From NCBI GenBank assembly GCA_045863395.1, contig BTVJ01000017.1:32001-96000 (forward strand): a DNA stretch of 64,000 nucleotides. The letters run 5' to 3'. The position numbers were made by a program, and so were the translations under genes. Source of the stretch: Myxococcales bacterium. GTDB taxonomy: Bacteria > Myxococcota_A > UBA9042 > JABWCM01 > BTVJ01. The notes beneath the pieces were generated by a model that saw only the letters and a program-made list of their open reading frames with translations, ran no database searches and had not been told where the DNA came from. Each line of letters begins with the position of its first letter. Within the stretch, counting starts at the first letter, position 1. Below, one piece after another: positions 17,823-43,818 of this stretch.

Positions 17823-17841
17823 TCGCAAGATCATGCTTCAT

Positions 17842-26630: not shown

Positions 26631-26870
26631 GCGGGTCTCCTGTGAGCGGCGACCAATGGGCGCTTGGCCGCCAGAGGTCTACGGCCGAGTGGCTCGCCGG
26701 GATCGACCGGCGGTCAGGCGGTCGCTGGGGTCGTCGCCAGCAGTCCACCAGGCAAGAGGAGCCGAGTCGACTTGACCCCAACCTTGTACCCGACCCGCCG
26801 CAGTGCTCCTTGCGCGCTCGCCCCGGCATCTAGTAGGCTTCGCCGCGCCCAAGCCCCCATGGAGATGCCG

Positions 26871-28507
26871 ATGAGCCGCCCCGAGACGATCAGCTTCGAC
26901 ACGCACCCGAGCCGCTACCGGCACTGGCGCTTCACCGTGGACGGCGACGTGGCGCGCCTCCTCATGGACGTACAGGAGGAGGGCGGCCTCGACCCGTCCC
27001 ACGTCCTCAAGCTCAACTCCTACGATCTTTCGGTGGACCTGGAGCTGGCGGACGCGGTGCAGCGCCTGCGCTTCGAGCACCCCGAGGTGCGGGTCGTCGT
27101 GGTCGGCAGCGCCAAGGACCGGGCGTTCTGCGCCGGCGCCAACATCCCGATGCTCGCGAGCTCGACCCACGCCTTCAAGGTCAACTTCTGCAAGTTCACC
27201 AACGAGACGCGGCTCGGCATCGAGGACGCGAGCCGCACGAGCGGGGTCCGCTTCCTCGCAGCGGTGTCCGGCGCCTGCGCCGGCGGCGGCTACGAGCTGG
27301 CGATGGCCTGCGACGAGATCCTGCTGATCGACGACCGGTCGAGCGCCGTGAGCCTGCCCGAGGTGCCCCTGCTCGGCGTGCTGCCCGGCACCGGCGGGCT
27401 GACCCGGCTCGTGGACAAGCGCAAGGTGCGGCGCGACCGGGCGGACGTGTTCTGCACCCTGGGCGAGGGCATCAAGGGCAAGCGCGCCGTGGAGTGGGGG
27501 TTGGTGGACGCCGTCGCCTCCAAGAGCCAGTACGCCGACGCGGTGGGGCGGCGCGCCCGCGCCCTGGCGGACTCGGTCCCGCCCAAGGCGGGGCGGGCCG
27601 GCGTGGCGCTCCCCCCACTGGCGCCCGAGATCGGCGAGGGCGGCCTGCGCTACGAGCACGTCGATGTTGTAATAGATGGTCGCGTCGCCACCGTCACCCT
27701 GACGGGGCCGGCCAGCGTGGTGACGGGCGCCGAGGCCATGCAAGCAGCCGGCGCCTCGTACTGGCCGCTGGCGGTGATGCGCCAGCTCGACGACGCCCTG
27801 CTCCAGCTCCGGTTCAACCACGAGGACGTCGGCCTGCTCGTTCTGAAGACCCGGGGCGACGCCGCGACCCTGCTCGCGACGGAGCAGGCGCTGTGGGACG
27901 CCCGCGACGACTGGTTCGCCAACGAGGTGCTCGGCATGGCCCGGCGCACGCTCAAGCGCCTGGAGACCAGCGCCCGCAGCCTGTTCGCCGTGGCGGACGC
28001 CGGGTCGTGCTTCGCCGGGCTCTTCCTGGAGGTCCTGCTCGCAGCGGACCGCTCTTACATGCTCAACGACCCGTCCGCGGCGGTCCACCTGCAGGTCGGC
28101 CCCCTGAACCGGGGGGCGCTGCCCATGGGCAACGGCCTCTCGCGGCTGGAGTCGCGCTTCCTGGACGCGCCCGAGCGGGTCGCCGAGGTGCTCGCCGTGA
28201 GCGGTCCCATCGACGCCGAGGAGGCGGATACCTTGGGCCTCGTGACCTTCGCCCCCGACGAGCTGGACTGGGAGGACGAGGTGCGGCTCGCCGTCGAGGA
28301 GCGGGCCAGCATGTCCCCCGACGCGCTGACGGGCATGGAGGCCTCCCTGCGCTTCGCCGGGCCCGAGACCCTGGAGACCAAGATCTTCGGGCGCCTGTCC
28401 GCCTGGCAGAACTGGATCTTCCAGCGCCCCAACGCCGTCGGCGAGCGGGGCGCGCTGAAACTCTACGGCAAACCCGAGCGGCCTGAGCTCGACTGGCGGA
28501 GGACCGG

Positions 28508-28511
<4 letters not shown>
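26871..28511 (+). CDS. boxC: 2,3-epoxybenzoyl-CoA dihydrolase BoxC
   Basis: F.T.PSRYRHW, LKLNSYDL.VD.ELADA.QRLRFEHPEV, HAFKVNFCKFTNETR, GPETLETKIFGRLSAWQNWIFQRPNAVG. Confidence 0.95.
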
Positions 28512-29920
<1,409 letters not shown>

Positions 29921-30457
29921 TCACACGCCCATGACTCCCCTCTCCCGCAGCTCCTCCAGACACACGGGACAATACGCCGCGCCCTTCAGATCGATCTCCT
30001 CCACGTAGGTGGAGCTGCGCATGACGCAGCGATACTCCTGGCAGTGGATGAGCCCAAAGGTGTGGCCCAGCTCGTGGACTGCCTCCTTCTCGAGGCGGTC
30101 CAGGTGGAGGCGCTCATCGGGCGGCAGGCCGTAGAAGCGCGGGTCGAGGCGCGCCGACGACACGACCGCCGCGCGCCCGTCGAGCTGGGCCTCCCCGAAC
30201 ACGAAGGTCAGCACCGGAACGAACAGGTCCACGCCCGTCACGCCGATGATGCGGCTGCTGCCCGTCGGCTCGGCCAGCAGGAGGGCGAGGAGCCGCGTCG
30301 AGCTGTACTGCGCGCGCCGGGGCTCAAAGGTGGACTCGGGGTCGAACGTCGGCGCGCGGATGCGCGTGTCCATGCCCAGCGCGACTCCGACCCGCGCGGC
30401 GAGCGCCTCCATGTGTGGCCGCATGGACCCAGGGAGTATGGGCACGAGGTCCAGCAC
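29921..30457 (-). CDS. Archaemetzincin family (M54) Zn metalloprotease (178 aa)
   Basis: HELGHTFGLIHC-x4-CVM-x17-CPVC; LTFVFGEAQL; GAGGGAG RBS and GTG start. Confidence 0.9.
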   Translation of the reverse strand: MLDLVPILPGSMRPHMEALAARVGVALGMDTRIRAPTFDPESTFEPRRAQYSSTRLLALLLAEPTGSSRIIGVTGVDLFVPVLTFVFGEAQLDGRAAVVSSARLDPRFYGLPPDERLHLDRLEKEAVHELGHTFGLIHCQEYRCVMRSSTYVEEIDLKGAAYCPVCLEELRERGVMGV

Positions 30458-30467
30458 GGTGGCTCCC

Positions 30468-31820
30468 TCAGGCGCCCTCGCGCCGCAGGTCGTACCTCTT
30501 GATCTTGGCGTAGAGGGTCGTCCGGTCGATGTCCAGCAGCTCCGCCGCCTTGCTGATGTTCCAGCCCTCCCGGTCGAGCACCGCCTTGATGTGCGCCTGC
30601 TCCATGGACGCCAGGGAGTCTCCCGCCGGCGGGCGCACCGCCGCCGCCTGGACGAAAGGCAGGTCGTCGGCACGAATCAGCGGGGGGCGCCCGACGACCA
30701 TCGCGCGCTCTACGGCATTCGCAAGCTCGCGCACGTTCCCGGGCCAGTCGTGGGCCATCAGCCGCTCGACGGCGGCCGGCTCGAAGTCGGTGATGTGCTT
30801 GTCCATCTGCAACGAGAGCTTCCGCAGGAAGTGCCGCGCCAGCAGGGGAATGTCGCTCCGACGTGATCGCAGCGGGGGCACGGTCAAGGTGAACACGTTG
30901 ATCCGGTAGTAGAGGTCCTGCCGGAACCGCCCCTGGGCGACCAGCTCCTCCAGGTTCTCGTTGGTGGCGCACACCACCCGAAAGTCCACGTGGATCTGCT
31001 GGCTGCCGCCCACCCGTGTCACCTCGTGGGTCTCCAGCACGCGGAGCAGGTCCACCTGGGTCTTGGGGCTGATGGTGCCGATCTCGTCCAGGAACAGGGT
31101 GCCCCCGTCGGCCAGCTCGATCTTCCCCTTTCTCCGATACTGGGCGCCCGTGAAGGCGCCCTTCTCGTGACCGAACAGCTCGCTCTCGAGCAGTGTCTCA
31201 GGCAACGCACCACAGTTGACGGGCACCATTGGCAGATAGCGCCGCCGGCTGTTGGCGTGAATCGCCAGAGCCACGAGCTCCTTCCCCGTGCCGCTCTCTC
31301 CACGAATCAACACCGTGGCGTCCGTCTCCGCCACCTGCTGGATCAGCCCCAGCAGCCGATTCATCTCGGGGCTCTCTCCGACGATGGTGCTCGCGCTGCG
31401 CAGCTCGTCGATGGTCTCCCGGAGCTGCGCGTTCTCGGACTCCAGCCGCTTCTGCTCCAGGGCGCGGCGCACCAGGTGGCTGAGCTCGTCCGGGTCGACG
31501 GGCTTGGTCACATAGTCGAAGGCCCCCTGTTTGAGCGCCCGGACGGCCGTGTCCACCGACGCGAAGGCCGTGATCATGATCACGACGGTGCCAGGAGCCG
31601 ACTTGTGGATGTGCTCCTGCAGCTCGATGCCGTCCATGCCGGGCATCTTGATGTCGAGGAGCGCCACGTCCCAGGCAGACTCCTGAATGGCGTGCAGCGC
31701 GTCGGTGGCGTTGGCGGCCGTGCGGACGCGGTAGCCGTCCTTGCGGAACCAGCTCGACAGCGAGTCCCGCACGGACAGCTCGTCGTCCACGATCAGCACA
31801 CTCCCCAGCTCCTTGCGCAT
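30468..31820 (-). CDS. Sigma54-dependent (NtrC-family) response regulator
   Basis: REC (LIVDDE, DIKMPGMDG, KP), GESGTGKE, GAFTGA, RQDLYYRIN, Fis-type HTH. Confidence 0.95.
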   Translation of the reverse strand: MRKELGSVLIVDDELSVRDSLSSWFRKDGYRVRTAANATDALHAIQESAWDVALLDIKMPGMDGIELQEHIHKSAPGTVVIMITAFASVDTAVRALKQGAFDYVTKPVDPDELSHLVRRALEQKRLESENAQLRETIDELRSASTIVGESPEMNRLLGLIQQVAETDATVLIRGESGTGKELVALAIHANSRRRYLPMVPVNCGALPETLLESELFGHEKGAFTGAQYRRKGKIELADGGTLFLDEIGTISPKTQVDLLRVLETHEVTRVGGSQQIHVDFRVVCATNENLEELVAQGRFRQDLYYRINVFTLTVPPLRSRRSDIPLLARHFLRKLSLQMDKHITDFEPAAVERLMAHDWPGNVRELANAVERAMVVGRPPLIRADDLPFVQAAAVRPPAGDSLASMEQAHIKAVLDREGWNISKAAELLDIDRTTLYAKIKRYDLRREGA

Positions 31821-31829
31821 GGTGCCTCC

Positions 31830-33443
31830 TCATGCCCCCGCGGGCGCCGGCGGCTGCCGCGGCAGCCTCACCTTGAACGTGGTGCCCACTCCCACACGGG
31901 TCTCCACGTCGATGGACCCTCCGTGCCGGTGAACGATGCCGTAGACCACGGCGAGCCCCAGGCCGACGCCGCTCTCCTGGTTCTTCGTCGAGAAGAACGG
32001 CTCGAAGATGTGGGGGAGCACCTCCTCGGGGATGCCGCCGCCCGTGTCCTCGACCTCCAGCCGGAGCCCCTCGTCGTCGCCAATCAATCTCACGAAAAGC
32101 CGCCCATCGGAGGACCCGTTCATGGATTCGAGGGAGTTCATGAGCAGCGCGAGCAGCGTCTGCTGCACCTGATCGGCGTCCGCGACGATCACGTCGTCGC
32201 CCTCGGCTTCGAGGGACAGGGAGACACCCGCCATCTCCGCCTTGTGCCGCACCAGCATCACCGCCCGCTCCGCGACCTCCTTCACGGGGACGGGCGCGAG
32301 CTTCGCCCCCGACTGGCGTGCAAAGACCAGCAGGTTGCGCACGATGTCGCCGCAGCGCATCGTCTCCTTCTGGATGGCGCCCACGTACCGCAGGACCTCC
32401 TCCAGCTCCTCGGGGGGCACGCCTTCTCTCAGGCTGCGCTCCACCAGCTTGGCGTAGGTCAGGACCCCGGCGAGAGGGTTGTTGATCTCGTGGGCGACCG
32501 TCGCCGACAGCTTGCCGAGGGAGGCCATCTTCTCCATGTGCACGATCTGCCGCTGGACCCGCCCGAGCTCGTCCGTCTTGGCGGCCACCTCGTCCTCCAG
32601 CTTGCGGGACCAGCCCGTCAGCTCCGCCCGTGCTGCCCGGAGGTCCGTCATCATCTGGTTGAAGGCCCGCGCCAGGGCGCCCAGCTCCCCCGGCGTGGAG
32701 ATCTCGATGGGCGTGACCAGGTCCCCCTGCGCGACGCGGCGCGTGCCGTCCCACAGCGCCAGCACTGGGCGCCGCACCATGCGGATCACGAGGAGCACCG
32801 AGATCCCCCCGACGAAAAGCAGCATGACCGCGACGAGCCACACCCACTGGAGCCGCGTCGCCGCCACGGCCTCGTCGACGGCCGCCATGGACATGCGAAC
32901 GTCCAGCACGCCGAGGACGCTCTGGTCGGCTGGGTGGGCGTGGCAGGCGGCGCTTGCGCACTGGGCGCTGTTGGAGATGGGATCGATGACCCCGAGGAGC
33001 CGCTCGCCGCTCGGCGCCCGGTACACCCGCATGCGGTCGGACAGCGGCGGGCTGCGCAGTGGCTCCCGCTGGTCGTGGCAGATCACGCAGGCCTCGGCCT
33101 TCAGGTCCACCTGGGCCCCGATCTCCGCGTCGTCGGCCGAGAAGACGATCACCCCCTGCTTGTCGTAGATGCGGATGCCCGCCACCCCCGGGGTCTCCGC
33201 CACGAAGCGGATGATCTGGTGCACGTCCTCCTTGCGGTTGAGCATCATCCCGTAGGTGGTCGCTCGCTTGACCAACTCCCCGGTGCGGGTGGCGAGCTGG
33301 TTGATGGTCTCGGTCCAGCGCTCCGACGTGGTGAAGTGGGAGATGGCGCCGAAGGCGACGAACACGACGCCCATGGCGGTGAGCAGGAACGCCAGCAGGC
33401 GCACGCTCAAGCTGGACAGCAGACCTCGGACGCCACGTCGCAT
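31830..33443 (-). CDS. Sensor histidine kinase with periplasmic c-type heme motifs and HAMP domain
   Basis: Two TM helices flank CVICH (33075-33089) and CASAACH (32940-32960); AHEINNPL H-box, DTGGGI, PFFSTK, GVGLGL. Confidence 0.92.
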   Translation of the reverse strand: MRRGVRGLLSSLSVRLLAFLLTAMGVVFVAFGAISHFTTSERWTETINQLATRTGELVKRATTYGMMLNRKEDVHQIIRFVAETPGVAGIRIYDKQGVIVFSADDAEIGAQVDLKAEACVICHDQREPLRSPPLSDRMRVYRAPSGERLLGVIDPISNSAQCASAACHAHPADQSVLGVLDVRMSMAAVDEAVAATRLQWVWLVAVMLLFVGGISVLLVIRMVRRPVLALWDGTRRVAQGDLVTPIEISTPGELGALARAFNQMMTDLRAARAELTGWSRKLEDEVAAKTDELGRVQRQIVHMEKMASLGKLSATVAHEINNPLAGVLTYAKLVERSLREGVPPEELEEVLRYVGAIQKETMRCGDIVRNLLVFARQSGAKLAPVPVKEVAERAVMLVRHKAEMAGVSLSLEAEGDDVIVADADQVQQTLLALLMNSLESMNGSSDGRLFVRLIGDDEGLRLEVEDTGGGIPEEVLPHIFEPFFSTKNQESGVGLGLAVVYGIVHRHGGSIDVETRVGVGTTFKVRLPRQPPAPAGA

Positions 33444-33481
33444 GGGCCTCCTCGCCCCCTCTGGGGAGAGGAGGCGAGGCC

Positions 33482-33511
33482 ATTATAGACCCGCAGGTCT
33501 GGATGTGGCAG
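33482..33511 (-). promoter_or_regulatory. Possible sigma70 promoter (perfect TATAAT -10, weak -35) for the kinase-regulator-protease operon
   Basis: ATTATA on + at 33482-33487 in a very GC-rich context, 40 nt upstream of the ATG. Confidence 0.4.
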
Positions 33512-33616
33512 GGGATCGCCGCGGCATCGGCGGCGTCGGCTACAACGGCCACCAGGGCACGCCGCCGGTGCCGGGGTCTCGCGCGACCGCTGGAGATGAG
33601 GCTCAGGGCGCTACGG

Positions 33617-33841
33617 TCACCGGCACACGGAGGCGCACTGCGCGTTGCAGTCCTTGGCGCCCTCCTTGGCCGCGCACTTGCGCTTGCACTTCGCACAGCC
33701 CTCGCTCGTGGGCCCCGTCAGAGGCTTCACGGCCTTGCCCATGGACTGGGAGTACTTGCCGCCGCCGCCGCCGGCCGACTGGCAAGCCGGGGCCGCGAGG
33801 GCAAGGAGCAGGACCGAAAGGAGCATCGCGCCACGTCTCAT
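33617..33841 (-). CDS. Small basic Cys-rich lipoprotein (74 aa)
   Basis: Hydrophobic signal LLSVLLLALAAPA-C; C-terminal CxxCxxxC-x8-CxxxCxxxC. Confidence 0.7.
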   Translation of the reverse strand: MRRGAMLLSVLLLALAAPACQSAGGGGGKYSQSMGKAVKPLTGPTSEGCAKCKRKCAAKEGAKDCNAQCASVCR

Positions 33842-34134
33842 GGGGATCGACCCTCTGCCAGGTGCGGTCGCGGTCGCCTCGCGTCACAGGAGCGTGACCC
33901 GCCACGGCGCGACGTGAGGCCGTGCATCCTAGCACATCTCCATTGGTGCAGTCGCCCCCACGCGTGGGGTGTGGCGGGCGAGGGCCGCGACGGAGTCTCG
34001 CTGAAGGACACCGTTGCTGCCCTTGGCAGGTGCGACCGAGCCGAGGCTCAGGTATCATCCGCCGCGACGTGACGCAGACGCGCCACGAATCAGACCTCCG
34101 GGGAGGCTCCCCCGGCAGCCCGGGAGGCCCTCCG

Positions 34135-35127
34135 ATGGCAACCGCCGACATGCTGATGAGGGGCCTGGCCCCGCGCCTGGCCGCCGCCAACCTGGCGCCC
34201 CCCTCTGCGGTCCTGCTGCGCGGGGTCCGACAGCGCGCGGCGGACGAGGCGTGGGAGCAGCACCGCCGTGAGGCGGCCGCTGCGGCCACCGCGATCACGC
34301 GGCGAGAGGAGGGCGCGCGGGAGCGCCTCGCGGCCGTGGCCGAGGCAGCGCTCCACGATCTGCGAGCGCGGGCGGCTCTGCTCGCACGAGGCGCCGGCGG
34401 CGCGTTGGCCCTCGCGGTGCGCCTCGACCAGGAGTTCATGGACCCGGACGCCCGCGAGCACATGGACGACCCGGCCTTCGACGAGGGGAAACGAAGAGGG
34501 GCGGTGGCCAGCCTGGACCGGATGAACGAGGGCGCCGGGATCTACGAGCTGTTCGCCGACGTCCTCGACCCGTGGCTCCCGCAGGGTGGCGCGCTGCTCG
34601 ATCTGGCCGCCGGCCATGGCGGATTCGCCGTGTGGCTCGCCCGCCGCGCCCGCGCCCAGGGCCGCCCCCTTCGCATCACCGCGACGGACCTCCACGACAG
34701 CTACCTCGCCCTCGGCCGCGAGCGCGCCCGCGCCGAGGGCCTCGAGGTGGAGCTTCGGCCGCAGGACGCCCTCGACCTGTCCAACCTCACGCCCGGCGCC
34801 TTCGACGTGGTGCTGTGTACCCAGGCGGTGCATCACTTCCCGGCGGGGCTCATCTCGGTGATGGTCGAGGAGGCCACGCGCATCGCAGGCCGGGCCGTCG
34901 TCCTCGTGGACGGCTGCCGGAGCGCCCTCTTTGCAGGCGTCCTGGTGACCCTCGGGCTCGTGGGCTTCCGCGACCCGACCTTCACCCACGACTCCTTCGC
35001 CTCCTTCCGCCGCTTCTTCGTGCCGGAGGAGCTGGGGCTCCTCGCCCGGCTCGGCGCTGGCGCCCGCCCCGTCGAGGCCAAGTTCAGGGCCCCCAACCAC
35101 TGCGTGGTCACGATCCCGACCCGCTGA
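34135..35127 (+). CDS. Class I SAM-dependent methyltransferase with N-terminal extension
   Basis: GGAGG RBS; EHMDDP, LLDLAAGHGG, ITATD, QDALDL, FDVVLCTQAVHHF. Confidence 0.85.
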   Translation: MATADMLMRGLAPRLAAANLAPPSAVLLRGVRQRAADEAWEQHRREAAAAATAITRREEGARERLAAVAEAALHDLRARAALLARGAGGALALAVRLDQEFMDPDAREHMDDPAFDEGKRRGAVASLDRMNEGAGIYELFADVLDPWLPQGGALLDLAAGHGGFAVWLARRARAQGRPLRITATDLHDSYLALGRERARAEGLEVELRPQDALDLSNLTPGAFDVVLCTQAVHHFPAGLISVMVEEATRIAGRAVVLVDGCRSALFAGVLVTLGLVGFRDPTFTHDSFASFRRFFVPEELGLLARLGAGARPVEAKFRAPNHCVVTIPTR

Positions 35128-35239
35128 CGCCGCCCGACCATCGCTGCGAGCCGCCGCGCCGCCTGCTCCCGATGGAGCGGCCAGGGCGCCGGATCCGCGG
35201 GTCCAGACCGCGCATCCGCGCGTCGCCCCCGCAGTGGGG

Positions 35240-35728
35240 CTACTCGCAGCGAGACTCGCCCGGGCGCGGCGGGCTGCTCCAGTCCACGGGACCGACGGTG
35301 AATCGGTGCTCGAGCCAGCACAAGACGAAGTCCCAGGCCCTGTCGAAGTAGGCGAAGACGGGGTCCGGGTCCGCGAGGCGCTCCCAGCCGAGGTGGCGCA
35401 CGCGCACCCGCGTCCCCGCCCCCTCGGCGGCGAGCTGCACGACGACGAAGGTGCGCGGACCCGACCGGGCGTCGGGGAACACCGGCGGCGCGTTCCACTC
35501 GAAGGACACCATCTCTCCCGGCACGAAGGACAGCACCCGCATCCCCTCCGACCCCTGGCTGCCGGGCGGCTCGGACAGATCGAAGAAGATCTCGTAGGGG
35601 CCCCCGAGCTCCAGGGCAATGCGCGCGTCCTCTCCGAAGAAGGTCCGCGCCCCCTCGCTCGTGGTCCACGCGTCCCAGACATCGGCGACGGGAGCGCCGA
35701 CGACCGTCTGCTTGTCGATGCACCGCAT
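35240..35728 (-). CDS. SRPBCC/AHSA1-like domain protein
   Basis: APVADVWDAWTT, GGPYEI, GTRVRVRHLGW, AWDFVL..L motifs. Confidence 0.85.
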   Translation of the reverse strand: MRCIDKQTVVGAPVADVWDAWTTSEGARTFFGEDARIALELGGPYEIFFDLSEPPGSQGSEGMRVLSFVPGEMVSFEWNAPPVFPDARSGPRTFVVVQLAAEGAGTRVRVRHLGWERLADPDPVFAYFDRAWDFVLCWLEHRFTVGPVDWSSPPRPGESRCE

Positions 35729-36077
35729 GAGGCTCCGTCTCCTAGCGAGATTGGCAACCGCACCTGCGACCGCCACGCCAGCTCGGCGCAGTGAGACAGG
35801 CTCGGCGGCATCCTACGACGCTTGCCCCCGATGCGTCCAACGGGGCCGCCAGAGCAGCGAGTGGCGGCCACCGTTGCCGGACCAGGAGAGGATGACGCCG
35901 CCTGCTGCGCTGCGCGCCAACGGGCGGTGCTTGTCGCGCGATGAGCGGTAGGAGCTCGCTCACCCCCCGCCTCCAGGCTGGCCTGCCCGTCGCCGTCGGG
36001 CCGGGCAGGGGCCCGTGGGCGCGACTCGACGCCGAGCGTGCGGTGGATCGGAGAGCGGCCTCAGCGCTCACACGAGC

Positions 36078-36503
36078 TCACACGTCGGGGACCGTCGCTA
36101 CGACCTGATAGGCAAAGCGCGCCGTGTGCGACGCGAGGTACAGCGTCTCGAGCGCGGACTCCACGGCGAGGGTGATCCCGCCGCCGGCGTCGGGGACGAA
36201 GAGCGCACGCGCGCTCACGACGCGCACGCGGATGTCGGACTGGACAATCGGCGAGACGCCCGACGGATGCACCGTCACCGACGCGCGCAGCGTCGACGGG
36301 TCGAGCGTAGACGGGAGCGAGGGAGCGGTCGGCACCAGGAATCGAAGGGTGCCTGCGACGCGCGCCGGGCTGCCGGTCGTGTCGGTGGTCACGTCGAAGT
36401 GACCCGCGAGGATGACCATGCGGGTCGCGGATCCGTCGGCGCCGCGTCCGCGAACTTCGACCAGGGGCTGCGCCTCCGCGCCACGAGAGATGAGCTGAGC
36501 CAT
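36078..36503 (-). CDS. Hypothetical protein (141 aa, beta-rich)
   Basis: ATG-started ORF downstream of and co-oriented with the redox operon, with plausible composition. Confidence 0.55.
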   Translation of the reverse strand: MAQLISRGAEAQPLVEVRGRGADGSATRMVILAGHFDVTTDTTGSPARVAGTLRFLVPTAPSLPSTLDPSTLRASVTVHPSGVSPIVQSDIRVRVVSARALFVPDAGGGITLAVESALETLYLASHTARFAYQVVATVPDV

Positions 36504-36588
36504 TCGCCAAGGCTACCTGCGAGCGCGCACCCGCGTCAACGGGCACGCCGCGCGATCCCGAGGGCCGTGGTCCCTTCTCGTGAGCCCC

Positions 36589-37314
36589 CTACCCCCGCGC
36601 CGGCCGCAGCAGGAGCTCGCGGACCAGGTCGAGGTGGCGGCGGCCGCCGACGAGGCTCGCCAGGTCGCGGAGGTTCGCCAGCGGCTCGCCCCCGTCGGCC
36701 ATGGTGGGGCCCACCTCGGTGGCCATGAGGAGCTCCATGGCCACGCGCCGCTGGAAGTGGTGGGCGTCGATGCGGGCCTGGTGCTCCGCCTCGCGGGCGC
36801 TCATCGTCTTGGCCTTCCCCGCCGGCGCCAGGTCGAGGAGCCAGCCGTCTCCGTAAGGGTCACGCACCAGCAGGCCCGGATCGCCGAGGAGCGCCGCGTT
36901 GCCGTTCGTCACGCGCCCCGCGGTAGGAGATGCCAGCTCGACGACCCCCTCCGGCGTGTCCACGGTCACGCACAGGGCGCCGTCCGCCACGGGGGCGCCC
37001 GGCCTCGGGAGAGAGACCGCCGCCGGCTCCGCGAGCAGGTCGGCCAGCATGGAGTCGATGCCCACCCGCAGGCCACCGTCGGCCCACGGCTTCAGCCAGA
37101 AGTGCCCCGCCGCGTAGTCCCGGTCGGCGGGGAAGCGCATCCCGCTGCGCCCCCTCGACGCCGGCGCCGCCCTCCCCCGCAGCGCTGCGTCCAGCGGGCA
37201 GTTGTCGCAGTCCAGGGCACGATCACAGGGCCGCCACGCGAGCACACCGGCGCCCACCCACACGCACGGTGTGTCCTGAGGAAGCCACCCTCGATCCGTC
37301 GCTTTGGAGCTCAT
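36589..37314 (-). CDS. GcvH-like protein A: N-terminal Cx12Cx5Cx2C motif, lipoyl Lys replaced by Glu, C-terminal GPTMADGG
   Basis: H.W....GGLRVGID, ELASPTAGRV...N, LLVRDPYGDGWL (H-protein fold); GGAGG RBS. Confidence 0.85.
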   Translation of the reverse strand: MSSKATDRGWLPQDTPCVWVGAGVLAWRPCDRALDCDNCPLDAALRGRAAPASRGRSGMRFPADRDYAAGHFWLKPWADGGLRVGIDSMLADLLAEPAAVSLPRPGAPVADGALCVTVDTPEGVVELASPTAGRVTNGNAALLGDPGLLVRDPYGDGWLLDLAPAGKAKTMSAREAEHQARIDAHHFQRRVAMELLMATEVGPTMADGGEPLANLRDLASLVGGRRHLDLVRELLLRPARG

Positions 37315-37333
37315 GGCGCCCTCCGCGGCCGCC

Positions 37334-38908
37334 TCAGTTGTGGCAGCTCGAGCAGTCATCGTCGGTCATCCCGAAGGCCTTGGTCCCCTCGTGGCAGCTC
37401 CCGCACAGCTCGCCCCGGTTCATGCGCTCGTGGGTGATCGTCCCAGACAGCGGCGCGCCGGGCTTCGTCAGACTCCAGTCTGTCTTGTGGCAGGCGCCGC
37501 ACTGGGCCCCCTCCACCGTCCCCATGTGGCTCTCGTGGCTGAAGGTGACCGCCCCGGGGCTGTCGCCAGTCACCGGGAAGGTGTAGTCGGCGGGCACCCG
37601 CAGGTCCCCAGCCTCCGACGGCGTCCCCACGACCCCGTCGCCCAGTCCGCGCGCCTCCGGCGAGCCGGCCATCGTGACCAGCACCACGCCGATGGCGAGC
37701 AGGCCCCACAGCCCGGCGATGCCCCAGCCGTTGGCGGTGGGCATGCCGCGGACGCCCAGGGCCGGCAGCATGGCGGGCGGGCGGGCGTGCTTCATCTCGC
37801 TCTGCGGGAAGACGTGCAGGTACTTGACCGCTGCCGCGAAGGCCGTGAAGCCGACCGCGCACAGGGCCAGCGTGACGCCGATCTCATAGATGCTCGGCAG
37901 ATACGCGACCCCGCTCGATCCGACCATCCCGGTGATCGACACGTTGAGCCGGTTGACGATGAAGCCCATGACCGTCAGCACCGCCGCGAAGAACATGGCG
38001 TGGCGGTTGCGACGCACCCGCGGCATGGCGAAGAGCACCATCGGGAGCACCATGCCGAGCCCGATCTCACCCCAGAAGAGCACCGCCTCCGGCGTGAACT
38101 GGAACACGAGCGGCAGGTTGCCCCGGCCCCACAGGTCCTGGAGCTTCCACATGCCGAGCACCGCGAGCACCACCACGATGACGCGGCTCATGCCGGCGAG
38201 CAGGTCGTCCTCGAGCCGGTGCCCGAAGGCGCGGTGGCTCAGGTAGGACTCGACGATGGTCATGGCCAGGCCGGCGGCCACGGCGGAGATGAAGAAGAAC
38301 ACCGGCAGCCACGGGGTGTACCAGAGGCCGTGGAGCTTGTCCGGCACGATGACGTAGAGCGTGCCCAGCGACGACTGGTGCATCATGGACAGGAGCACGC
38401 CCAGGATGACCAGCGGGATGTAGATGGTCTGCATGGCCTTGAGCGGCCTCTTCCAGCCGAGGCGCTCCAGCACGACGGGGCTGAACTCCAGGGCCAGCAC
38501 CGTGGTGTAGAGCATGACGCACCAGGCGACCTCGAACATGACGCTGTGGGGGTTCCACATGACGAGCGGGTGCCAGATGTCCCACGGCTGGCCGAGGTCG
38601 AAGAGCAGACCCACACACACCAGCACGTAGCCGAGGAAGGCCGTAAGCACCGCCGGGCGAGCGATGGGCTCGTACTTCTCGATGTGGAAGAGGTGGACCG
38701 CCGCGGCCACCGTGAAGCCACCGGCGGCGAGGCCGACGCCGACGAGCACGTCGAAGCCGATCCAGAGCCCCCAGGGGAAGGCGTCGCTGAGATTGGTCGA
38801 GGCGCCGAGGCCGAAGCCGTAGCGCAGCACCGCCGAGACCGCCCCGAAGAGCAGAATCAGGGCGAGCAGGCTTTGCCAGATCGTGAGCTTACCGCGTGGA
38901 GTCGTCAT
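37334..38908 (-). CDS. NrfD/HybB-type membrane subunit fused to a C-terminal triheme c7-type cytochrome (524 aa)
   Basis: GLGASTNLSDAFPWGLWIGFDV, DLGQPW, SVMFEVAWCVMLY, MHQSSLGTL, NRLNV; then VTFSHESH...CGACH...CGSCH...CSSCH. Confidence 0.9.
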   Translation of the reverse strand: MTTPRGKLTIWQSLLALILLFGAVSAVLRYGFGLGASTNLSDAFPWGLWIGFDVLVGVGLAAGGFTVAAAVHLFHIEKYEPIARPAVLTAFLGYVLVCVGLLFDLGQPWDIWHPLVMWNPHSVMFEVAWCVMLYTTVLALEFSPVVLERLGWKRPLKAMQTIYIPLVILGVLLSMMHQSSLGTLYVIVPDKLHGLWYTPWLPVFFFISAVAAGLAMTIVESYLSHRAFGHRLEDDLLAGMSRVIVVVLAVLGMWKLQDLWGRGNLPLVFQFTPEAVLFWGEIGLGMVLPMVLFAMPRVRRNRHAMFFAAVLTVMGFIVNRLNVSITGMVGSSGVAYLPSIYEIGVTLALCAVGFTAFAAAVKYLHVFPQSEMKHARPPAMLPALGVRGMPTANGWGIAGLWGLLAIGVVLVTMAGSPEARGLGDGVVGTPSEAGDLRVPADYTFPVTGDSPGAVTFSHESHMGTVEGAQCGACHKTDWSLTKPGAPLSGTITHERMNRGELCGSCHEGTKAFGMTDDDCSSCHN

Positions 38909-39674
38909 GGCTCTCCTCCTGATGGCCGTTGGTCTCGTGCTCGCGGCGCGTGCGGGCAAGCTCGTCGCGGCGCTTGATGATCCACCAGATTCCGAAGAGG
39001 CCCACGCCGGAGACGCTCACGACGTTGGGCAGCTTGGACAGGATGTTCCAGGTCAGGGCGGGGTACGGGTCGTTCTGGACGCCCGTGCGGAAGCCGATCT
39101 GCTCGAAGGGCACGTCCGAGATGAACAGGACGCCCGTTCCGCCGGCCTCCTTCTCGCCGTAGATGTGGTTGACGTAGACGTCGGGGGACTCGGCGAGGCG
39201 CTTGCGGGCCTCGGCGAGCAGCTCCTCGCGGTCTCCGAAGACGATGGCGCCGGTCGGGCACGCGGACGTGCAGGCGGGCTCCTCGCCGCGGCTCACGCGC
39301 TTCTCGTAGCACATGATGCACTTCTGCACCGCGGGCACCTTCGCGTCCCACTCGTACTTGGGGATGTTGAAGGGGCAGCCGAGCATGCAGTAGCGGCACC
39401 CGATGCACTTGGGCTCGTCGTAGACCACCGCCCCCTCCGGGGTCTTGTGGAGCGCCCCGACCGGGCACACCGACACGCAGGCCGGCTCCACGCAGTGCAT
39501 GCACGAGTGGCGGACGTGTACGCCGCGCCGGTTCTCGACGGTGAGCCAGGTGGTGGCGGAGAGCTTCCGGGCCCCGTCCTCCCGCGGGAGGTCGTTCGAC
39601 TCCTTGCACGCCCACACGCAAGCCTCACAGCCGATGCACTTGGTCAGATCCACCAGGATTGCGGCCGAGCTCAT
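38889..39674 (-). CDS. HybA/FdnH/NrfC-like 4x[4Fe-4S] polyferredoxin with C-terminal TM helix and no Tat signal
   Basis: CIGCEACVWAC, CMHCVEPACVSVCP, CIGCRYCMLGCP, CIMC...PACTSACP; IYGEKEAGGT; hydrophobic tail. Confidence 0.92.
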   Translation of the reverse strand: MSSAAILVDLTKCIGCEACVWACKESNDLPREDGARKLSATTWLTVENRRGVHVRHSCMHCVEPACVSVCPVGALHKTPEGAVVYDEPKCIGCRYCMLGCPFNIPKYEWDAKVPAVQKCIMCYEKRVSRGEEPACTSACPTGAIVFGDREELLAEARKRLAESPDVYVNHIYGEKEAGGTGVLFISDVPFEQIGFRTGVQNDPYPALTWNILSKLPNVVSVSGVGLFGIWWIIKRRDELARTRREHETNGHQEESHDDSTR

Positions 39675-40396
39675 GACAGCCTCCCTTCGCGCGCGCTGGC
39701 GCCATGCACGGTCTCCTTCGTGCCGTGGAACAGGTCTCCGCTCAGGCGCTCCCAGGCCGGCTCGTCCAGGCAGTCAGCCAGAGCGTCCGCCGGCGCGCCG
39801 CCGTCGAGCATGGTCGCGCCCACCGTGGAGGGGGGCAGCATGGCGAGCACCGACTCCCGAAGCCGGTGCAGCTCCCCGGCGACCCATGCGCGGGCGTCCT
39901 CACCGACCGTCATGGCCGGCAGCGCCTTGTTCAGATCCCGCGGGCGGACCTTGTAGAGCCAGGTCAGGGCCTCGGGCAGCTCGCGGTAGGCCGCGACCTC
40001 CGTGTTGACCTCCTCGACGACGGCCCCCATCGGTGCGCGCAGGGTGAGCGCTCGGCCTCCACTCTGGAAGGTGAAGAGCGGCGCGCCGGCCTCGATGACC
40101 GTCCCCGGCGGGTGGAGCTCGACGCCGTCGGGCGTTCCCAGCGCCATCAGGGCCACCGGCGACGCGCCGACGGACACCAGGCCGTCCGCCTCGACGCGCA
40201 GCCAGGTGTGGGTCGGGTCCATGAAGATGTCGCCCGGCAGCGCGGAGGGGTCGACCTCGGCCCGCGGGCGAGTGCGTGCGAGCTCCGCCGCGTTGACCCG
40301 CGCCGCCGCCAGGGTCCGGCGGTACGTGGCCCGCTGGACGAAGAAGTCGATGGTCAGGAAGAGCAGGATGACTGTGACGATGAGCAAGGCAACCAT
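39671..40396 (-). CDS. GcvH-like protein B: N-terminal TM anchor, lipoyl Lys replaced by Gly, C-terminal GATMLDGG
   Basis: GGAGGAG RBS; MVALLIVTVILLFLTIDFFV; HTWLRV, TLRAPMGAVVEEVN, WLYKVRP. Confidence 0.85.
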   Translation of the reverse strand: MVALLIVTVILLFLTIDFFVQRATYRRTLAAARVNAAELARTRPRAEVDPSALPGDIFMDPTHTWLRVEADGLVSVGASPVALMALGTPDGVELHPPGTVIEAGAPLFTFQSGGRALTLRAPMGAVVEEVNTEVAAYRELPEALTWLYKVRPRDLNKALPAMTVGEDARAWVAGELHRLRESVLAMLPPSTVGATMLDGGAPADALADCLDEPAWERLSGDLFHGTKETVHGASAREGRLS

Positions 40397-40444
40397 GGTT
40401 CTCCTCCAGTCAGGCGTGCGACCGCCGCACGTGACCCCCACCTG

Positions 40445-40460
40445 TGCACGGACCGGGCCA
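40445..40460 (-). promoter_or_regulatory. Sigma54-like promoter TGGCCCGGTCCGTGCA for the gcvH-like B/ferredoxin/NrfD-c7/gcvH-like A operon
   Basis: GG-N10-GC spacing with TGGC and TGCA, 49 nt upstream of the ATG. Confidence 0.55.
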
Positions 40461-40528
40461 CCGCCTCGGAGGTGCCAGAGGACCGCTCTCCATGCGGAGT
40501 TCCGCTCGCGGCCCTCCTGATCGCGCGC

Positions 40529-40670
40529 TGTTGGATTCCTCGACACGCCTCAGGAGCGCCAGGCGCCCTGGAGCACACCCCGAGCCGCACGCGCGGACTT
40601 TCTTCAATACATTTCAACCACTTGCGAGCGACCGCCGAGAATCGCCACACCGCTGTCGAGAAATCCAACG
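40529..40670. promoter_or_regulatory. Pair of inverted 17-bp boxes TGTCGAG(G/A)AATCCAAC(A/G) (40529-40545 on -, 40654-40670 on +) flanking an IHF-like site TTTCAACCACTTG (40612-40624); putative enhancer (UAS) region
   Basis: The two boxes match at 15 of 17 positions in inverted orientation, and each is an imperfect palindrome. Confidence 0.65.
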
Positions 40671-40746
40671 CAATTTGGGGGCTCTGCGACACCTCCGCGA
40701 TTGCCCCTCCGCGCCAATGCTGGCCTTCGCCACGCTCGGAGGGCTG

Positions 40747-40762
40747 TGGCACGCCCCTTGCC
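40747..40762 (+). promoter_or_regulatory. Sigma54 promoter TGGCACGCCCCTTGCC for gcvH-like C
   Basis: Near-perfect TGGCACG-N4-TTGC, 62 nt upstream of the ATG at 40824. Confidence 0.75.
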
Positions 40763-40823
40763 ATCACCTGGGCCCGAGGTTGGCGGGGGCGCCCTCAGGA
40801 GACCGAACGGAGAGGAGGCTGAC

Positions 40824-41570
40824 ATGAAGACCGCAGGAACAGAGGTGACGTGGATGAAGACGAGTCTCGCTGCTCTGGCCGCCGTGGCGCTGCTCGTGCT
40901 GGCGCTGCCTGTCCTCGCCGCCGCCTCCATCGCGGCGCGCATCGTGGTGCCGGTGGTGGTGCTCGGCGCGGTGGCGGTGCTGCTGCTGGTGCCGTCGCTC
41001 CGGCGGCGGGTGGTGCTCGGTGAGGACGAGATGCAGTACAGGGGCCTCCGCGTGCCCCTGGAGGGCCTTCTACACTCCGCACACACGTGGGTGAAGGAGC
41101 GCCGCGGGAGCCTGGTGGCGGGAGTCGATGACCTGATGCTGCGGGTGCTCGGTCCGGTGGACCGCGTGGAGCTGCCCGCGGTGGGGACCGTGCTCGCGGC
41201 GGGGGCCCCGATGGCGCGCCTGCACGGCGGCGGGCGGTCCATCACGGTGCGCGCCCCGGTGGCCGGGCGCGTCGAGGCGACCAACGACCGCCTGGACAGG
41301 GACCCCTCGCTGCTCGTGCGGTCTCCCTACCGAGACGGCTGGGCCGTGCGGATCGCGCCGTCGGAGCAGCCCACCGGCCTGCTGAGCGGCACGCGGGCGA
41401 CGCGATGGTTCGCTTCGGAGGTGGACGGGCTCCTGTCGATGCTGTCCGGGCCCACGCTCGGCCACGCGACCATGCACGACGGCGGCGCTGTGACGGACGC
41501 GCTCCACGAGGACCTGGACGACCTGACCTTCCGCCGCGTCAGCGCGCGCTTCTTCGGCGGCGAGTGCTGA
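40824..41570 (+). CDS. GcvH-like protein C: N-terminal two-TM hairpin, lipoyl Lys replaced by Gly, C-terminal HATMHDGG
   Basis: GAGGAGG RBS (alternative start 40854); HTWV, AGVDDL, VELPAVG, TVRAPVAGRVEATN, LLVRSPYRDGWAVRI. Confidence 0.87.
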   Translation: MKTAGTEVTWMKTSLAALAAVALLVLALPVLAAASIAARIVVPVVVLGAVAVLLLVPSLRRRVVLGEDEMQYRGLRVPLEGLLHSAHTWVKERRGSLVAGVDDLMLRVLGPVDRVELPAVGTVLAAGAPMARLHGGGRSITVRAPVAGRVEATNDRLDRDPSLLVRSPYRDGWAVRIAPSEQPTGLLSGTRATRWFASEVDGLLSMLSGPTLGHATMHDGGAVTDALHEDLDDLTFRRVSARFFGGEC

Positions 41571-43818
41571 GCAGGAGCAGGGTCAGCAGCCAGGCCAAGG
41601 TCGAGGGCGCCGGCGAGGGGCCCACGCCGCAGCCTCCCGAGGACCCCCCTCCCGGCGCCGCTCCCCCCCCATCGCTGCTCTTCCCCCCATCGGGCACCGT
41701 GTCCACGGAGCCACCGTCCGCGGCCCCGGCTCCCGCATCCGTCACGGTGACAACGGAGTCCGCCCCGCCCGGTTGAGAGTCGTCCGCCCCCCCTCCCGAA
41801 TCCTTGGGGGCACCGGCGTCGGGCGCCCCGGAGTCCTCTGCGTCGTCAGACGGACCCACCGCCGAGTCCCCGCCGGGAGCTCCGGTGTCGTTGATCGCGA
41901 TATCCAGGCTGTCATTGCCGGTGTCGTCCTCGCCCGTGTCGCCCGCGGTGTCGCCAGCGGCCCCGGCGTCATCCCCGCCCGCGTCGTCCCCACCCCCTGC
42001 ATCCCAGACGCCGGCGTCTTCCCCACCCCCAATGCAGGCGCCGTTCTCGCAGGTGCCCGCGCCGCACGAGCCACACGAGCCACCGCACCCGTCGTCGCCG
42101 CACTCCATGCCCGTGCACGCCGGCACGCAGGGGCAGCCGCCCAGGTCCGGGCAGGCGCCGCACACGTTGTCGCAGCAGTCGCCGTACCCGAAGCACTCCT
42201 CGTCGCAGTAGCACCCGCTCGGCGCCTGGTTGCCGCACTGGTCCTTGCACCCGCCGGTCACGTCCACGCACGCATCGCCCTCGCACTGCTTGCCGGGCCC
42301 ACAGACCCCGCAGGAGCCCCCGCACCCGTCCGGGCCGCACGCCTTGCCGTCGCACTTCGGCGTGCAGGGACCGCACCCCGAGACGCCGGGGCAGTCCTCG
42401 CACACCTTGTCGCAGCAGTCGCCGTAGCCGAAGCAGAGGTCGTCGCAGTAGCAGCCCACGCTGGACTGGCCGCCGCACTTGCCCGCACAGAACCCACCCG
42501 TCACGCAGGCCCCGCCCGAGCACCACTGGTCCGCCCCGCAAGTGCCGCAGGTGCCGCCGCACCCGTCGTCGCCGCACGACTTGCCGCCGCAGCTCGGCGT
42601 ACACGCCTCGCACACGCCCCCCTTGCAGGCCGTACCCGGCGCGCACGCCCCGCAGGAGTCTCCGCACCCGTCGTCGCCGCACGCCTTGCCGGCGCAGCTC
42701 GGCACGCAGCAGCCCTTGGTGCCTGGGCAGGCCTTGCACACGCCCTCGCAGCAGTCCCCATAGCCGTGACACTCGTTGTCGCACCAGCACCCGGACGGCG
42801 CCTGCCCGCCGCAGTGGCCCTGGCACTCGCTGGACCCGCAGGCGCCTCCCTCCAGGCACACCTGGCCCGCCGGGCAGGTCCCGCAGGAGCCCCCGCACCC
42901 GTCGTCGCCACACTGAATCCCCTTGCACTTCGGCTGGCACGCCACGCACTGACCGGTCGCGGGGATACAGTCGTCCGTGCCCGAGCAGCTCCCGCAGGTT
43001 CCCCCGCACCCATCGGGGCCGCACGTCTTGCCCTTGCAGGCGGGGGTGCAGCACTGGAAGCTGGCGCACACCTGGAAGGGGCCGCAGGTGCCGCAGTCGA
43101 CCCCGCAGTAGGAGCCGCACGCGATCCCCTCGCAGCTCGGCTGGGCCGGGCACGCGCCACACGGGAAGCCACAGTCCAGCTCACAGGCGCTCGCACAGAA
43201 CTCATCCCAGGCATCGGTGCAGCAGGTCGGGTACTTGGCGCAGACACACGCCTCGCACGGGCACCCCCCGCAGCCGGCCTTCGTCGAAGGCAGACACGGC
43301 TTGGGCAGCGGGAGGCACTTGAAGAGCCCATCCACGCACTCGGTGCCCGGCCCGCAGGTGCCACAGGAGAACCCCTGCGGGTCCTTGCCGCACTCCTTGC
43401 CGCCGCACTGGGGGGTCGCACAGACCCCCGTGTCCAGGCACACGCCGTCCCCGGGGCACGCGCCGCACCCACCGGGACACTGTGGGCTGCACGCGCCGCC
43501 GGCGCACGCCGCCGGACACCCGCCGCAGGCGATGGCGTGGGTCCCACTCGGATCGGTCGCGCCCTTCGGCTGCCCGCAGTCGTAGTAGCCGAGGGGGTTC
43601 CACCCGCAGGAGGGGAACACCCCCGCGCAGTCCAGACAGAAGAGGTTGCTGCCCTCGCACCAGAGGTTGCGCCCGTAGGGGTCACAACACCCCTCCAGGG
43701 TCACCCCGGCGCAGCCGCCTGGCACGCTCGGAGTCAGCGCCCCCTTGCACTCGATGACGACGGGGGCCGCCGCGGCGGACAGCGGCACCAGAAGGGCGAG
43801 GAACAGCAACGCTCGCAT
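41539..43818 (-). CDS. Cys-rich MYXO-CTERM surface protein with CGxDGCGGxCGxC repeats and three somatomedin-B-like modules (759 aa)
   Basis: Signal peptide MRALLFLALLVPLSAAA; CxxxCGxQxxxGCxCDxxCxGYGDCC three times; tail SSGGCGVG-hydrophobic-RRRR. Confidence 0.85.
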   Translation of the reverse strand: MRALLFLALLVPLSAAAAPVVIECKGALTPSVPGGCAGVTLEGCCDPYGRNLWCEGSNLFCLDCAGVFPSCGWNPLGYYDCGQPKGATDPSGTHAIACGGCPAACAGGACSPQCPGGCGACPGDGVCLDTGVCATPQCGGKECGKDPQGFSCGTCGPGTECVDGLFKCLPLPKPCLPSTKAGCGGCPCEACVCAKYPTCCTDAWDEFCASACELDCGFPCGACPAQPSCEGIACGSYCGVDCGTCGPFQVCASFQCCTPACKGKTCGPDGCGGTCGSCSGTDDCIPATGQCVACQPKCKGIQCGDDGCGGSCGTCPAGQVCLEGGACGSSECQGHCGGQAPSGCWCDNECHGYGDCCEGVCKACPGTKGCCVPSCAGKACGDDGCGDSCGACAPGTACKGGVCEACTPSCGGKSCGDDGCGGTCGTCGADQWCSGGACVTGGFCAGKCGGQSSVGCYCDDLCFGYGDCCDKVCEDCPGVSGCGPCTPKCDGKACGPDGCGGSCGVCGPGKQCEGDACVDVTGGCKDQCGNQAPSGCYCDEECFGYGDCCDNVCGACPDLGGCPCVPACTGMECGDDGCGGSCGSCGAGTCENGACIGGGEDAGVWDAGGGDDAGGDDAGAAGDTAGDTGEDDTGNDSLDIAINDTGAPGGDSAVGPSDDAEDSGAPDAGAPKDSGGGADDSQPGGADSVVTVTDAGAGAADGGSVDTVPDGGKSSDGGGAAPGGGSSGGCGVGPSPAPSTLAWLLTLLLLSTRRRRSAR

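Follow-up and report, generated by a model that had tools for sequence, protein, structure and literature searches.

A 64,000-nucleotide stretch of the genome of a Myxococcales bacterium (contig BTVJ01000017.1, positions 32,001 to 96,000; hereafter the window, with positions counted from its first letter) carries at 29921–41570 a cassette made up of a membrane redox module, three proteins resembling the H protein of glycine cleavage (H-A, H-B and H-C), a haem-type sensor kinase, a sigma-54 activator and an M54 protease. We conclude that this cassette is a real, widespread and apparently undescribed package. Its redox part is predicted to be a quinone:cytochrome c oxidoreductase of the Nhc/Hmc type, a known kind. 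What appears to be new is a conserved palindrome with a sigma-54 promoter, a Cache sensor with two haem-type motifs, and H-folds without the lipoyl lysine in soluble and membrane-tethered classes. The reading we favour, to which we give about an even chance, is a functional redox wire controlled by its own haem kinase, with the H-folds acting as protein-level effectors on the cytoplasmic face.

The source genome is 8.77 Mb long and 97% complete. All eight genes named in the original prediction, which had proposed a redox-sensing system here, are present and intact, with the order and strands it gave. The redox operon runs on the minus strand from H-B (39671–40396) through an iron-sulfur (FeS) protein (38889–39674) and an NrfD-c7 fusion (37334–38908) to H-A (36589–37314), and H-C (40824–41570, plus strand) is divergent from it. 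A second minus-strand operon, in the order kinase (31830–33443), activator (30468–31820) and M54 protease (29921–30457), follows after a gap of 3146 nucleotides.

With an H-A alignment as query we scanned species-representative genomes; 221 of 274 candidate stretches were confirmed, and the best 80 served as homologous loci (cited by L numbers). As they were selected via H-A and many are related, the counts below are not independent and the linkage of H-A to the kinase is inflated. Presence was counted by tblastn and not from our own gene calls, which contained shadow open reading frames (ORFs) in L085 and L115 and cut several H-A genes short at the start. Among these best 80 loci the kinase was found in 72, the activator in 69, the FeS and NrfD proteins in 64 each and M54 in 39. 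In the 44 loci with full flanks, kinase and activator were present in 42, FeS and NrfD in 36, M54 in 26 and all five in 19; the two-component pair occurred without the module in seven, and the reverse in two. The carriers belong to Myxococcota, Planctomycetota, Gemmatimonadota, Acidobacteriota, Eisenbacteria, Bacteroidota, Kryptoniota, Wallbacteria and other groups, and about 9 of the 301 genomes of the window's own phylum have full-length profile matches (judged by eye from match ranges). The gene-neighbourhood search therefore bears out the proposal that these genes belong together, as they co-occur across phyla. Our literature search on GcvH-like proteins with NrfD or Hmc modules, whose scope stopped short of subscription journals and bioRxiv supplements, found no description. 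The cassette is not mentioned in the accessible parts of PMC5492636 (on Melioribacter) or PMC9324843, and the word glycine does not occur in that of PMC8076601. In four Gemmatimonadales loci (L045, L047, L049 and L052) the genes after H-A and H-C are not the redox module but an RND efflux set. The genome of L047 still has the module, at another place and with candidate activator sites.

The redox module and the search for a catalytic partner

The FeS protein is of the HmcB/HybA type, with four [4Fe-4S] sites (16 Cys), a C-terminal transmembrane tail and no twin-arginine translocation (Tat) signal. NrfD-c7 is an NrfD-family subunit of the HmcC/NhcC/HybB type (PF03916) joined to a trihaem domain (PF14522, three CxxCH). 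Their best NCBIfam matches are HmcB (256 bits against a cut-off of 420) and HmcC (319 against 550), both below cut-off; NrfD-c7 scores above cut-off for TIGR04257. Hydropathy gives one C-terminal transmembrane helix in the FeS protein and eleven in NrfD-c7 (ten plus an eleventh), which places the c7-type domain outside, in the periplasm. All five quinone-site residues of NhcC and eight of nine residues of the first proton pathway (as listed in Table 2 of PMC8076601) are kept in the window NrfD, and the equivalents of Y109, S137, Y149, E156 and H197 are invariant in 62 of 62 homologues. The proton-path spacing of QrcD, as far as the accessible part of PMC6303296 allows the comparison, also fits. 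A PDB sequence search with NrfD gave no match.

These features are those of NhcABCD and HmcABCD of Desulfovibrio, where a tail-anchored 4x[4Fe-4S] protein, a ten-helix NrfD subunit and a periplasmic bis-His-type multihaem cytochrome likewise come without an enzyme; taken together, the window NrfD keeps 13 of 14 listed NhcC quinone and proton residues. In contrast to those systems, the trihaem c7 is fused to NrfD, and there is neither a separate nine-haem NhcA nor a 16-haem HmcA. No HmcE/HmcF-like family is found among the neighbours that recur in at least two loci (singletons partly scanned), and no HmcD peptide was found after NrfD in the window, although homologues of one H class elsewhere (class D, below) have an HmcD-like N-terminus. 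Further differences from Nhc and Hmc are the FeS protein without a Tat signal and the attached H-folds, di-haem-type kinase, sigma-54 activator and M54. The same dimeric module, with a periplasmic-side quinone site and an N-side proton path, is found in QrcABCD, the TpIc3:menaquinone oxidoreductase, and in HybAB (accessible part of PMC6303296). Unlike these, the cassette has no QrcB-like or hydrogenase subunit, a group-1/2 NiFe small subunit occurs in only 9 of 40 carrier genomes, no HybO/HybC is linked, and the window FeS protein has no Tat signal of its own of the HybA kind. By sequence, then, the cassette would work like Nhc or Qrc but fails membership in Hmc, Hyb and GcvH/LbpA. HybB and HmcC have been suggested to be electrogenic quinone reductases, with the function and direction of the HmcC type called uncertain in the same accessible text (PMC6303296).

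The original prediction had spoken of a transmembrane redox wire. We keep the wire and not its course across the membrane: in the NrfD family, which according to the accessible part of PMC8076601 has no transmembrane redox chain, electron partner and quinone site both face the periplasm, and protons alone cross the membrane. The module brings its periplasmic partner with it, as the fused c7 in the window, as a separate cytochrome of 11–18 haems in 28 of 80 loci, and as a fusion of a tetrahaem domain, a transmembrane helix and an H-fold in two. Because the module carries its own haem cytochrome, a missing enzyme is not in itself unusual. Enzyme-less modules of an FeS protein, a HybB-like or NrfD subunit and a c-type cytochrome have already been described (in the parts accessible of 10.1101/2023.11.02.564894 and, as NhcABCD and Hmc, in Table 1 of PMC8076601), and the source genome has four more; the lack of an enzyme, which the original prediction had stressed, is therefore not the surprise. 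The 11–18-haem c3-type proteins of the other loci score far below the NhcA cut-off. A second enzyme-less paralogue, without a Tat signal and without H genes, is found on contig C28 of the source genome, at 68378–79442: behind rnf genes come a c3-type cytochrome with 16 haems, an HmcB-like FeS protein that has no Tat signal, and an HmcC-like subunit carrying a fused five-haem domain. Clusters of cytochromes with 11–26 haems, candidate extracellular electron conduits and possible module partners, lie at 111363–116106 of contig C4 and 23801–29257 of contig C13.

Tat signals are found on 47 of 65 FeS subunits, none of which precedes a c7-fused NrfD; all ten FeS genes that do precede one, that of the window included, have no such signal. 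Apparent Tat signals on two c7-fused FeS proteins (window and L048) were rejected as start-less upstream frames.

A whole-genome search for a relocated catalytic subunit found none in the source genome. The only NiFe hydrogenase there is a cytoplasmic group-3-like operon, with no group-1-type NiFe small subunit as a neighbour; an FeFe hydrogenase gave no match in this 97%-complete genome; and the Tat molybdoenzymes have FeS partners of their own. A Ttr-like Tat molybdoenzyme on contig C110 has no NrfD anchor in the 9 kb viewed. The window gene list, read by eye from first residues with a partial Pfam scan, agrees with the original prediction that no catalytic, hyp, gcvP/T or ligase gene is recognised in the window; the true gcvT/H/P cluster is on a separate contig of the same genome. 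Within 10 kb of the 80 loci catalytic genes are rare (NarG-type in L058 and L072, formate dehydrogenase- or Nap-like in L108, hyp in L101) and no real NiFe large-subunit motif was found. In L101, hypF/C/D lie downstream on the same strand and the genome's NiFe large subunit is probably just beyond the flank, so that this locus may be a true exception to the enzyme-less pattern. In L058 (11805–20684) and L072 the cassette adjoins ScdA/RIC hemerythrin genes and the NarG-type Tat molybdoenzyme, with an NnrS-like gene in L058; these neighbours hint at a nitric oxide (NO) or nitrate context in two of 80 loci. A universal relocated partner was considered and rejected: NiFe small subunits were found in 9, NrfA in 15 and NosZ in 13 of 40 carrier genomes, which are incomplete metagenome-assembled genomes (MAGs) counted without a background control.

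Lipoate-free H-folds and the receiver-fused variant

The lipoyl lysine is absent from all three H proteins, as first noted. In the column of the lipoyl lysine, set from the genome's own GcvH, H-A has E and H-B and H-C have G, and all three score above cut-off for PF01597. By hydropathy H-A has no transmembrane helix, H-B one and H-C two, the last two at the N-terminus as an anchor and a hairpin, each followed by the H-fold and a tail with a DGG motif; the H-fold of H-B is predicted to be cytoplasmic. A model of H-A gives the H-protein fold with a helical tail, and its top Foldseek matches are all H proteins (target template-modelling score up to 0.93). Its N-terminus carries a four-Cys module (C17, C30, C36 and C39) and its helical tail the DGG motif; the module was modelled at a predicted local distance difference test score of 45–61, a confidence too low to interpret. 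No relative of H-B was found in viral contigs.

On a quick tree the homologues cluster into four classes, namely A (soluble, four-Cys), B (one transmembrane helix), C (transmembrane hairpin) and D, with lysine in the lipoyl column in 1 of 77, 5 of 33, 1 of 30 and 0 of 21 members, respectively. Class D follows NrfD in 20 of 21 cases and begins with an HmcD-like helix (five of six scanned match the HmcD model, one of them above cut-off at 35 against 34 bits), which argues for physical membership in the complex. Class A adjoins the kinase gene in 60 of 77 cases, a figure biased by the H-A query. In split cassettes the FeS-NrfD genes keep a B or D protein and the kinase keeps A and C: FeS-NrfD was found elsewhere in four of five genomes whose kinase locus is without the module, and an H gene flanks it in all four. 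In L033 and L044 the H genes, together with the kinase, accompany multihaem cytochrome c/b561 modules instead of FeS-NrfD. In L036 (9992–15629) and L038 a QrcABCD-like cluster is followed by a different protein with transmembrane, Cys and H-fold parts.

As leads only, the four-Cys module also appears on receiver proteins, below our naming bar, and on Fer2_4/Fer4 proteins. In L032 (11023–19938), within a Hnd/Hox-like operon, a HoxU/HndD-like FeS domain is fused to the four-Cys module and an H-fold: the first subunit has this FeS relay, module and fold where the H-cluster domain is expected. Behind this subunit come another Cys-H protein, NuoE/F-like genes and a set of sensory-type FeFe, DRTGG, PHP and kinase genes; a sigma-54 promoter is present.

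The fold is that of GcvH, LbpA and GcvH-L, and LbpA, of sHdr sulfur oxidation, is an H-fold recruited to a redox system (accessible part of PMC6067878). LbpA and GcvH keep the lipoyl lysine and come with ligases, whereas the cassette H-folds are nearly Lys-free, are preceded by a transmembrane anchor, a four-Cys module or a receiver, and carry a helical tail after the fold. They look like regulatory parts, not carriers.

An Atlas search revealed a cluster of receiver-H fusions, and class B profile matches were present in 31 of 201 genomes of a Bacteroidota-group phylum. We examined 18 regions, mostly picked for long H frames. In 13 of them the order is FeS, NrfD, a cytochrome with 12–13 haems, haem-Cache kinase, soluble receiver-H and a transmembrane receiver-H (the soluble one called in 12). 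A sigma-54 activator is found in only two of these 13, a sigma-54 promoter precedes none of the 11 FeS heads scored, and the four-Cys module is absent in 12 of 13. Pfam confirmed both the receiver and the H domain in four of four scanned fusions, and the transmembrane receiver-H has class B as its nearest class in 12 of 13. In this variant the H-fold would be the direct output of the kinase, and the sole non-signalling neighbours are the redox subunits; the relay role that had been suggested for the H-folds gains support from these fusions. The soluble receiver-H proteins of L159–L171 mostly have one Cys ahead of the H-fold and another, PCSSDR-like, at the C-terminus, reminiscent of the two Cys of LbpA, and several of these loci adjoin clusters of cytochromes with 12–19 haems.

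The kinase operon, candidate DNA sites and neighbouring genes

Family, alignment and fold searches describe the kinase as a sensor histidine kinase in which two transmembrane helices enclose an sCache domain, followed by HAMP, HisKA and HATPase domains. The haem-c kinase of the original prediction is confirmed as a kinase with a haem-type motif, with the correction that the motifs in its periplasmic domain are two (CxxCH and C-x4-CH) and not one. The second motif, of the kind known as a haem site in c3 cytochromes, and one Met are invariant in 60 aligned sensors. Since the sensors were picked by CxxCH, its presence in 71 of 71 kinases is circular, and only C-x4-CH and the Met count as unselected. 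Both motifs are present in 21 of 21 Bacteroidota-group kinases. The sensor is probably of a di-haem c type. Its model is a single Cache domain related to GSU0935 and GSU0582 (Foldseek, GSU0935, E 7e-5), with a weak match to PF21563 and none to PF11845 at E 0.1; it thus shares the single Cache fold and haem c motif of sCache_heme proteins (DUF3365/Tll0287; GSU0582, GSU0935) but differs in the two motifs and in the lack of a PF11845 match. As sCache_heme domains fused to signalling proteins behave as NO sensors (accessible part of PMC12889525), NO is a live alternative to redox sensing by the kinase. On a quick kinase tree the window protein is closest to that of a Myxococcales MAG.

The activator was identified by family search as an NtrC-type protein with receiver, AAA and helix-turn-helix domains and a GAFTGA motif, the last present in 56 of 61 full-length homologues. 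The sigma-54-type promoters predicted on both sides are present: a perfect consensus before H-C (40747–40762, plus strand) and a weaker site before the operon headed by H-B (40445–40460, minus strand), which a consensus search with one mismatch missed and whose spacing, 64 nucleotides before H-B, is the same as in homologous loci. Across these loci TGG-N9-TGC, at a distance of 45–110 nucleotides, precedes 45 of the 63 heads of membrane-H genes, 6 of 7 of small-hairpin genes and 21 of 33 of H-A genes, against a background of 2 of 58 for kinase genes and 22 of 367 for other genes; of another 22 H-A genes, whose start calls are truncated, 2 have it. Upstream motif discovery gave a 17-nucleotide palindrome with the consensus TGTTGAGAATCTCAACA. 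In leave-one-locus-out scoring it precedes 43 of 50 heads of class A, 21 of 23 of class B and 22 of 27 of class C, versus 15 of 288 unrelated heads, and when the genome was ranked with the window sites left out of training, H-C came first and H-B second of 2801 gene heads. The window has two such candidate activator sites, conserved across phyla, at 40528–40545 and, inverted relative to it, at 40654–40671; a third, weak palindrome-like site is at 40632. The predicted regulon in the source genome is essentially the cassette itself. The co-conservation of palindrome and activator, and the absence of the palindrome where the activator is absent, suggest that the activator binds it. Regulation by the neighbouring two-component system, as first proposed, is well supported by this conserved candidate site and promoter; from sequence alone, the GAFTGA activator, the -24/-12 promoter and the upstream palindromes are the features of a sigma-54 enhancer-binding regulon. 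Two wider members were not accepted (position 54411 of contig C38 and window 16362–17702); each has one site only and encodes a secreted Cys-rich protein. Before the latter gene, at 17808–17935 (minus strand), stand a perfect sigma-54 site and one upstream cassette-like palindrome.

The M54 protein is an archaemetzincin (NF033823, 150.4 against a cut-off of 145) with an intact HExxHxxGxxH and Cys zinc-site motif, no signal peptide and a probable GTG start. It is absent from 24 of 61 loci with room for it. Its near-exclusion with the separate multihaem cytochrome (in 61 loci, 23 with the cytochrome only, 35 with M54 only, two with both and one with neither) was given no weight, since on the quick kinase tree the loci with only the cytochrome fall into two clades. 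We know of no physiological substrate of a bacterial archaemetzincin.

A weak sigma-70-like promoter candidate for the kinase operon lies at 33482–33511 on the minus strand (10 of 12 matches; one found versus 0.4 +/- 0.6 in shuffles). Between the two operons, four lineage-specific inserted genes (33617–36503) have no tblastn match in the 80 homologous loci and lie outside the cassette: a small Cys-rich secreted peptide, a SAM methyltransferase, an AHSA1/SRPBCC protein and a 141-residue ORF. The first (33617–33841, minus strand) encodes 74 residues, secreted or lipoprotein-like, with six Cys and no Pfam match, and is covered by RNA-library contigs of two studies. Two plus-strand genes at 26859–29920, which we take to be boxC- and boxB-like genes of the benzoyl-CoA pathway, adjoin the M54 stop; their counterparts have no match in homologous loci. 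An Rfam search of 28000–43000 gave no match. Contigs from sludge and aquatic metatranscriptomes cover 38551–40637 and H-C; we did not count them as transcription of the cassette, since the genes next to it are covered as well and contigs are no proof of transcription.

Proposed mechanism and its alternatives

In the reading we favour, the path of electrons would link the trihaem c7 in the periplasm with the four FeS clusters and with quinone at the NrfD site that faces the periplasm, and protons would move to or from the cytoplasm along the conserved NrfD path. Such a menaquinone:cytochrome c oxidoreductase would probably be electrogenic and, to judge from QrcD, HybB and HmcC, would more likely run from cytochrome to quinone, reversibly. 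Through its two predicted c-type haems the kinase would sense the redox state of the periplasm, or a ligand of the haems such as NO, and phosphorylate the activator, which would bind the paired palindromes and drive both divergent promoters, the site and promoter being shown by conservation. Membrane-tethered H proteins (B here, D in other lineages) would sit on the cytoplasmic face of the complex, and soluble H-A would pair with them, its putative four-Cys metal module replacing the receiver of the Bacteroidota-group variant. The H pair would then switch the activity, assembly or stability of the complex and may feed back on the kinase, with M54 perhaps an optional turnover factor. Proton gating, a metal-sensing H-A and the proteolytic reset by M54 that had been suggested earlier are speculative.

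Several observations weigh against this reading. The window FeS protein has no Tat signal, and no Tat partner that would account for its export is seen in such loci; the E141 equivalent is Leu in 22 of 62 NrfD homologues; and the window has no HmcD-like class D protein, the N-terminus of H-B giving no HmcD match. The receiver-H proteins seem to be without the DGG tail motif, so that the lineages may differ in mechanism. The persistence of H-A and H-C beside the kinase in loci whose module is elsewhere (7 of 44) fits feedback on the kinase equally well, and the L032 fusion points to an electron-transfer adaptor role.

The H-folds might accordingly be structural or electron-transfer adaptors that replace HmcE/HmcF, with the four Cys as an Fe-S or rubredoxin-like centre docking a cytoplasmic redox partner such as a diaphorase or ferredoxin-linked enzyme. 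The HmcD-H fusion at the hmcD position without a recurring hmcE/F-like family, the L032 fusion of HoxU/HndD-N with the four-Cys module and H-fold, the lead from Fer2_4/Fer4 proteins, and the H genes beside Qrc-like and cytochrome c/b561 modules (L036, L038, L033, L044) speak for this. We nevertheless think it unlikely: a family with no transmembrane redox chain (accessible part of PMC8076601) gives a cytoplasmic partner no obvious path, the receiver-H lineage does without the four-Cys module in 12 of 13 regions, and no cytoplasmic redox enzyme recurs nearby (PFOR-like in three and NuoF-like in two of the clustered loci). If instead the H pair serves as an accessory loop that feeds back on the kinase or activator, as PspA with PspB/C acts on PspF, the redox module would merely be regulated and would not touch the H proteins. 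Classes A and C travel with the kinase in split genomes, class A adjoins it (with the query bias given above), and all H genes are under the activator's predicted promoter, as expected of feedback regulators; set against B and D travelling with FeS-NrfD, the fusion of D to an HmcD-like helix or tetrahaem domain, and a receiver-H lineage mostly without a transcription factor to feed back on, this makes the loop improbable to us.

Two further explanations concern the module itself. The whole cassette could be a sensor whose FeS-NrfD-c7 unit does no more than equilibrate with the quinone pool and pass the signal to the kinase haems and H proteins, with no physiological flux; there is no operon enzyme in the great majority of the 80 loci and no universal partner enzyme in the carrier genomes, the second haem-type motif of the kinase could exchange electrons with c7, and the predicted regulon is essentially the cassette. 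Because the quinone-site and proton-path residues are kept, the proton path strongly so, we regard the pure quinone-pool sensor of the original prediction as the less likely reading; cytochromes of 11–18 haems in about a third of the loci would be excessive for sensing, and the kinase with H-A and H-C also occurs where the module is not nearby or where a cytochrome c/b module of another kind accompanies it, which together make it distinctly unlikely. To the idea that the module is the membrane arm of an enzyme encoded elsewhere, which would also supply the Tat signal for the FeS protein, we attach hardly any probability. Signal-less tail-anchored FeS and HybB-like pairs have been proposed to hitchhike with a Tat FeFe hydrogenase (accessible part of 10.1101/2023.11.02.564894), and the hyp genes of L101, with a large subunit probably just beyond its flank, and the unanchored molybdoenzyme on C110 agree with it. 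Yet the source genome gave no FeFe hydrogenase match and has a NiFe enzyme of the cytoplasmic type, 47 of 65 FeS subunits have their own Tat signal, none of the tested enzyme families is present in even half of 40 carrier genomes, and no enzyme gene has a candidate activator site pair.

Returning to the redox wire under kinase control, we tentatively suggest a more specific version, itself doubtful, in which the lipoate-free H-fold is an unrecognised signalling output that acts directly, from the cytoplasmic side, as a switch of an energy-conserving quinone complex, perhaps by gating proton entry. Its input would be phosphorylation in the receiver-H lineage or, in that of the window, a small four-Cys metal sensor, and the di-haem Cache kinase would read the periplasmic cytochrome pool by haem-to-haem exchange. 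HmcC-type modules are widespread, and the cassette ties one to a specific sensor, DNA site and set of accessory proteins across phyla. It would give the glycine-cleavage H fold a lipoate-free role and response regulators a new output domain, would extend haem-Cache sensors to two haems, and would offer the first genomic context for a bacterial archaemetzincin; many metagenome genes labelled 'glycine cleavage system H protein' would then be misannotated. If true, the more specific version would amount to a new class of respiratory control circuit common to many uncultured phyla.

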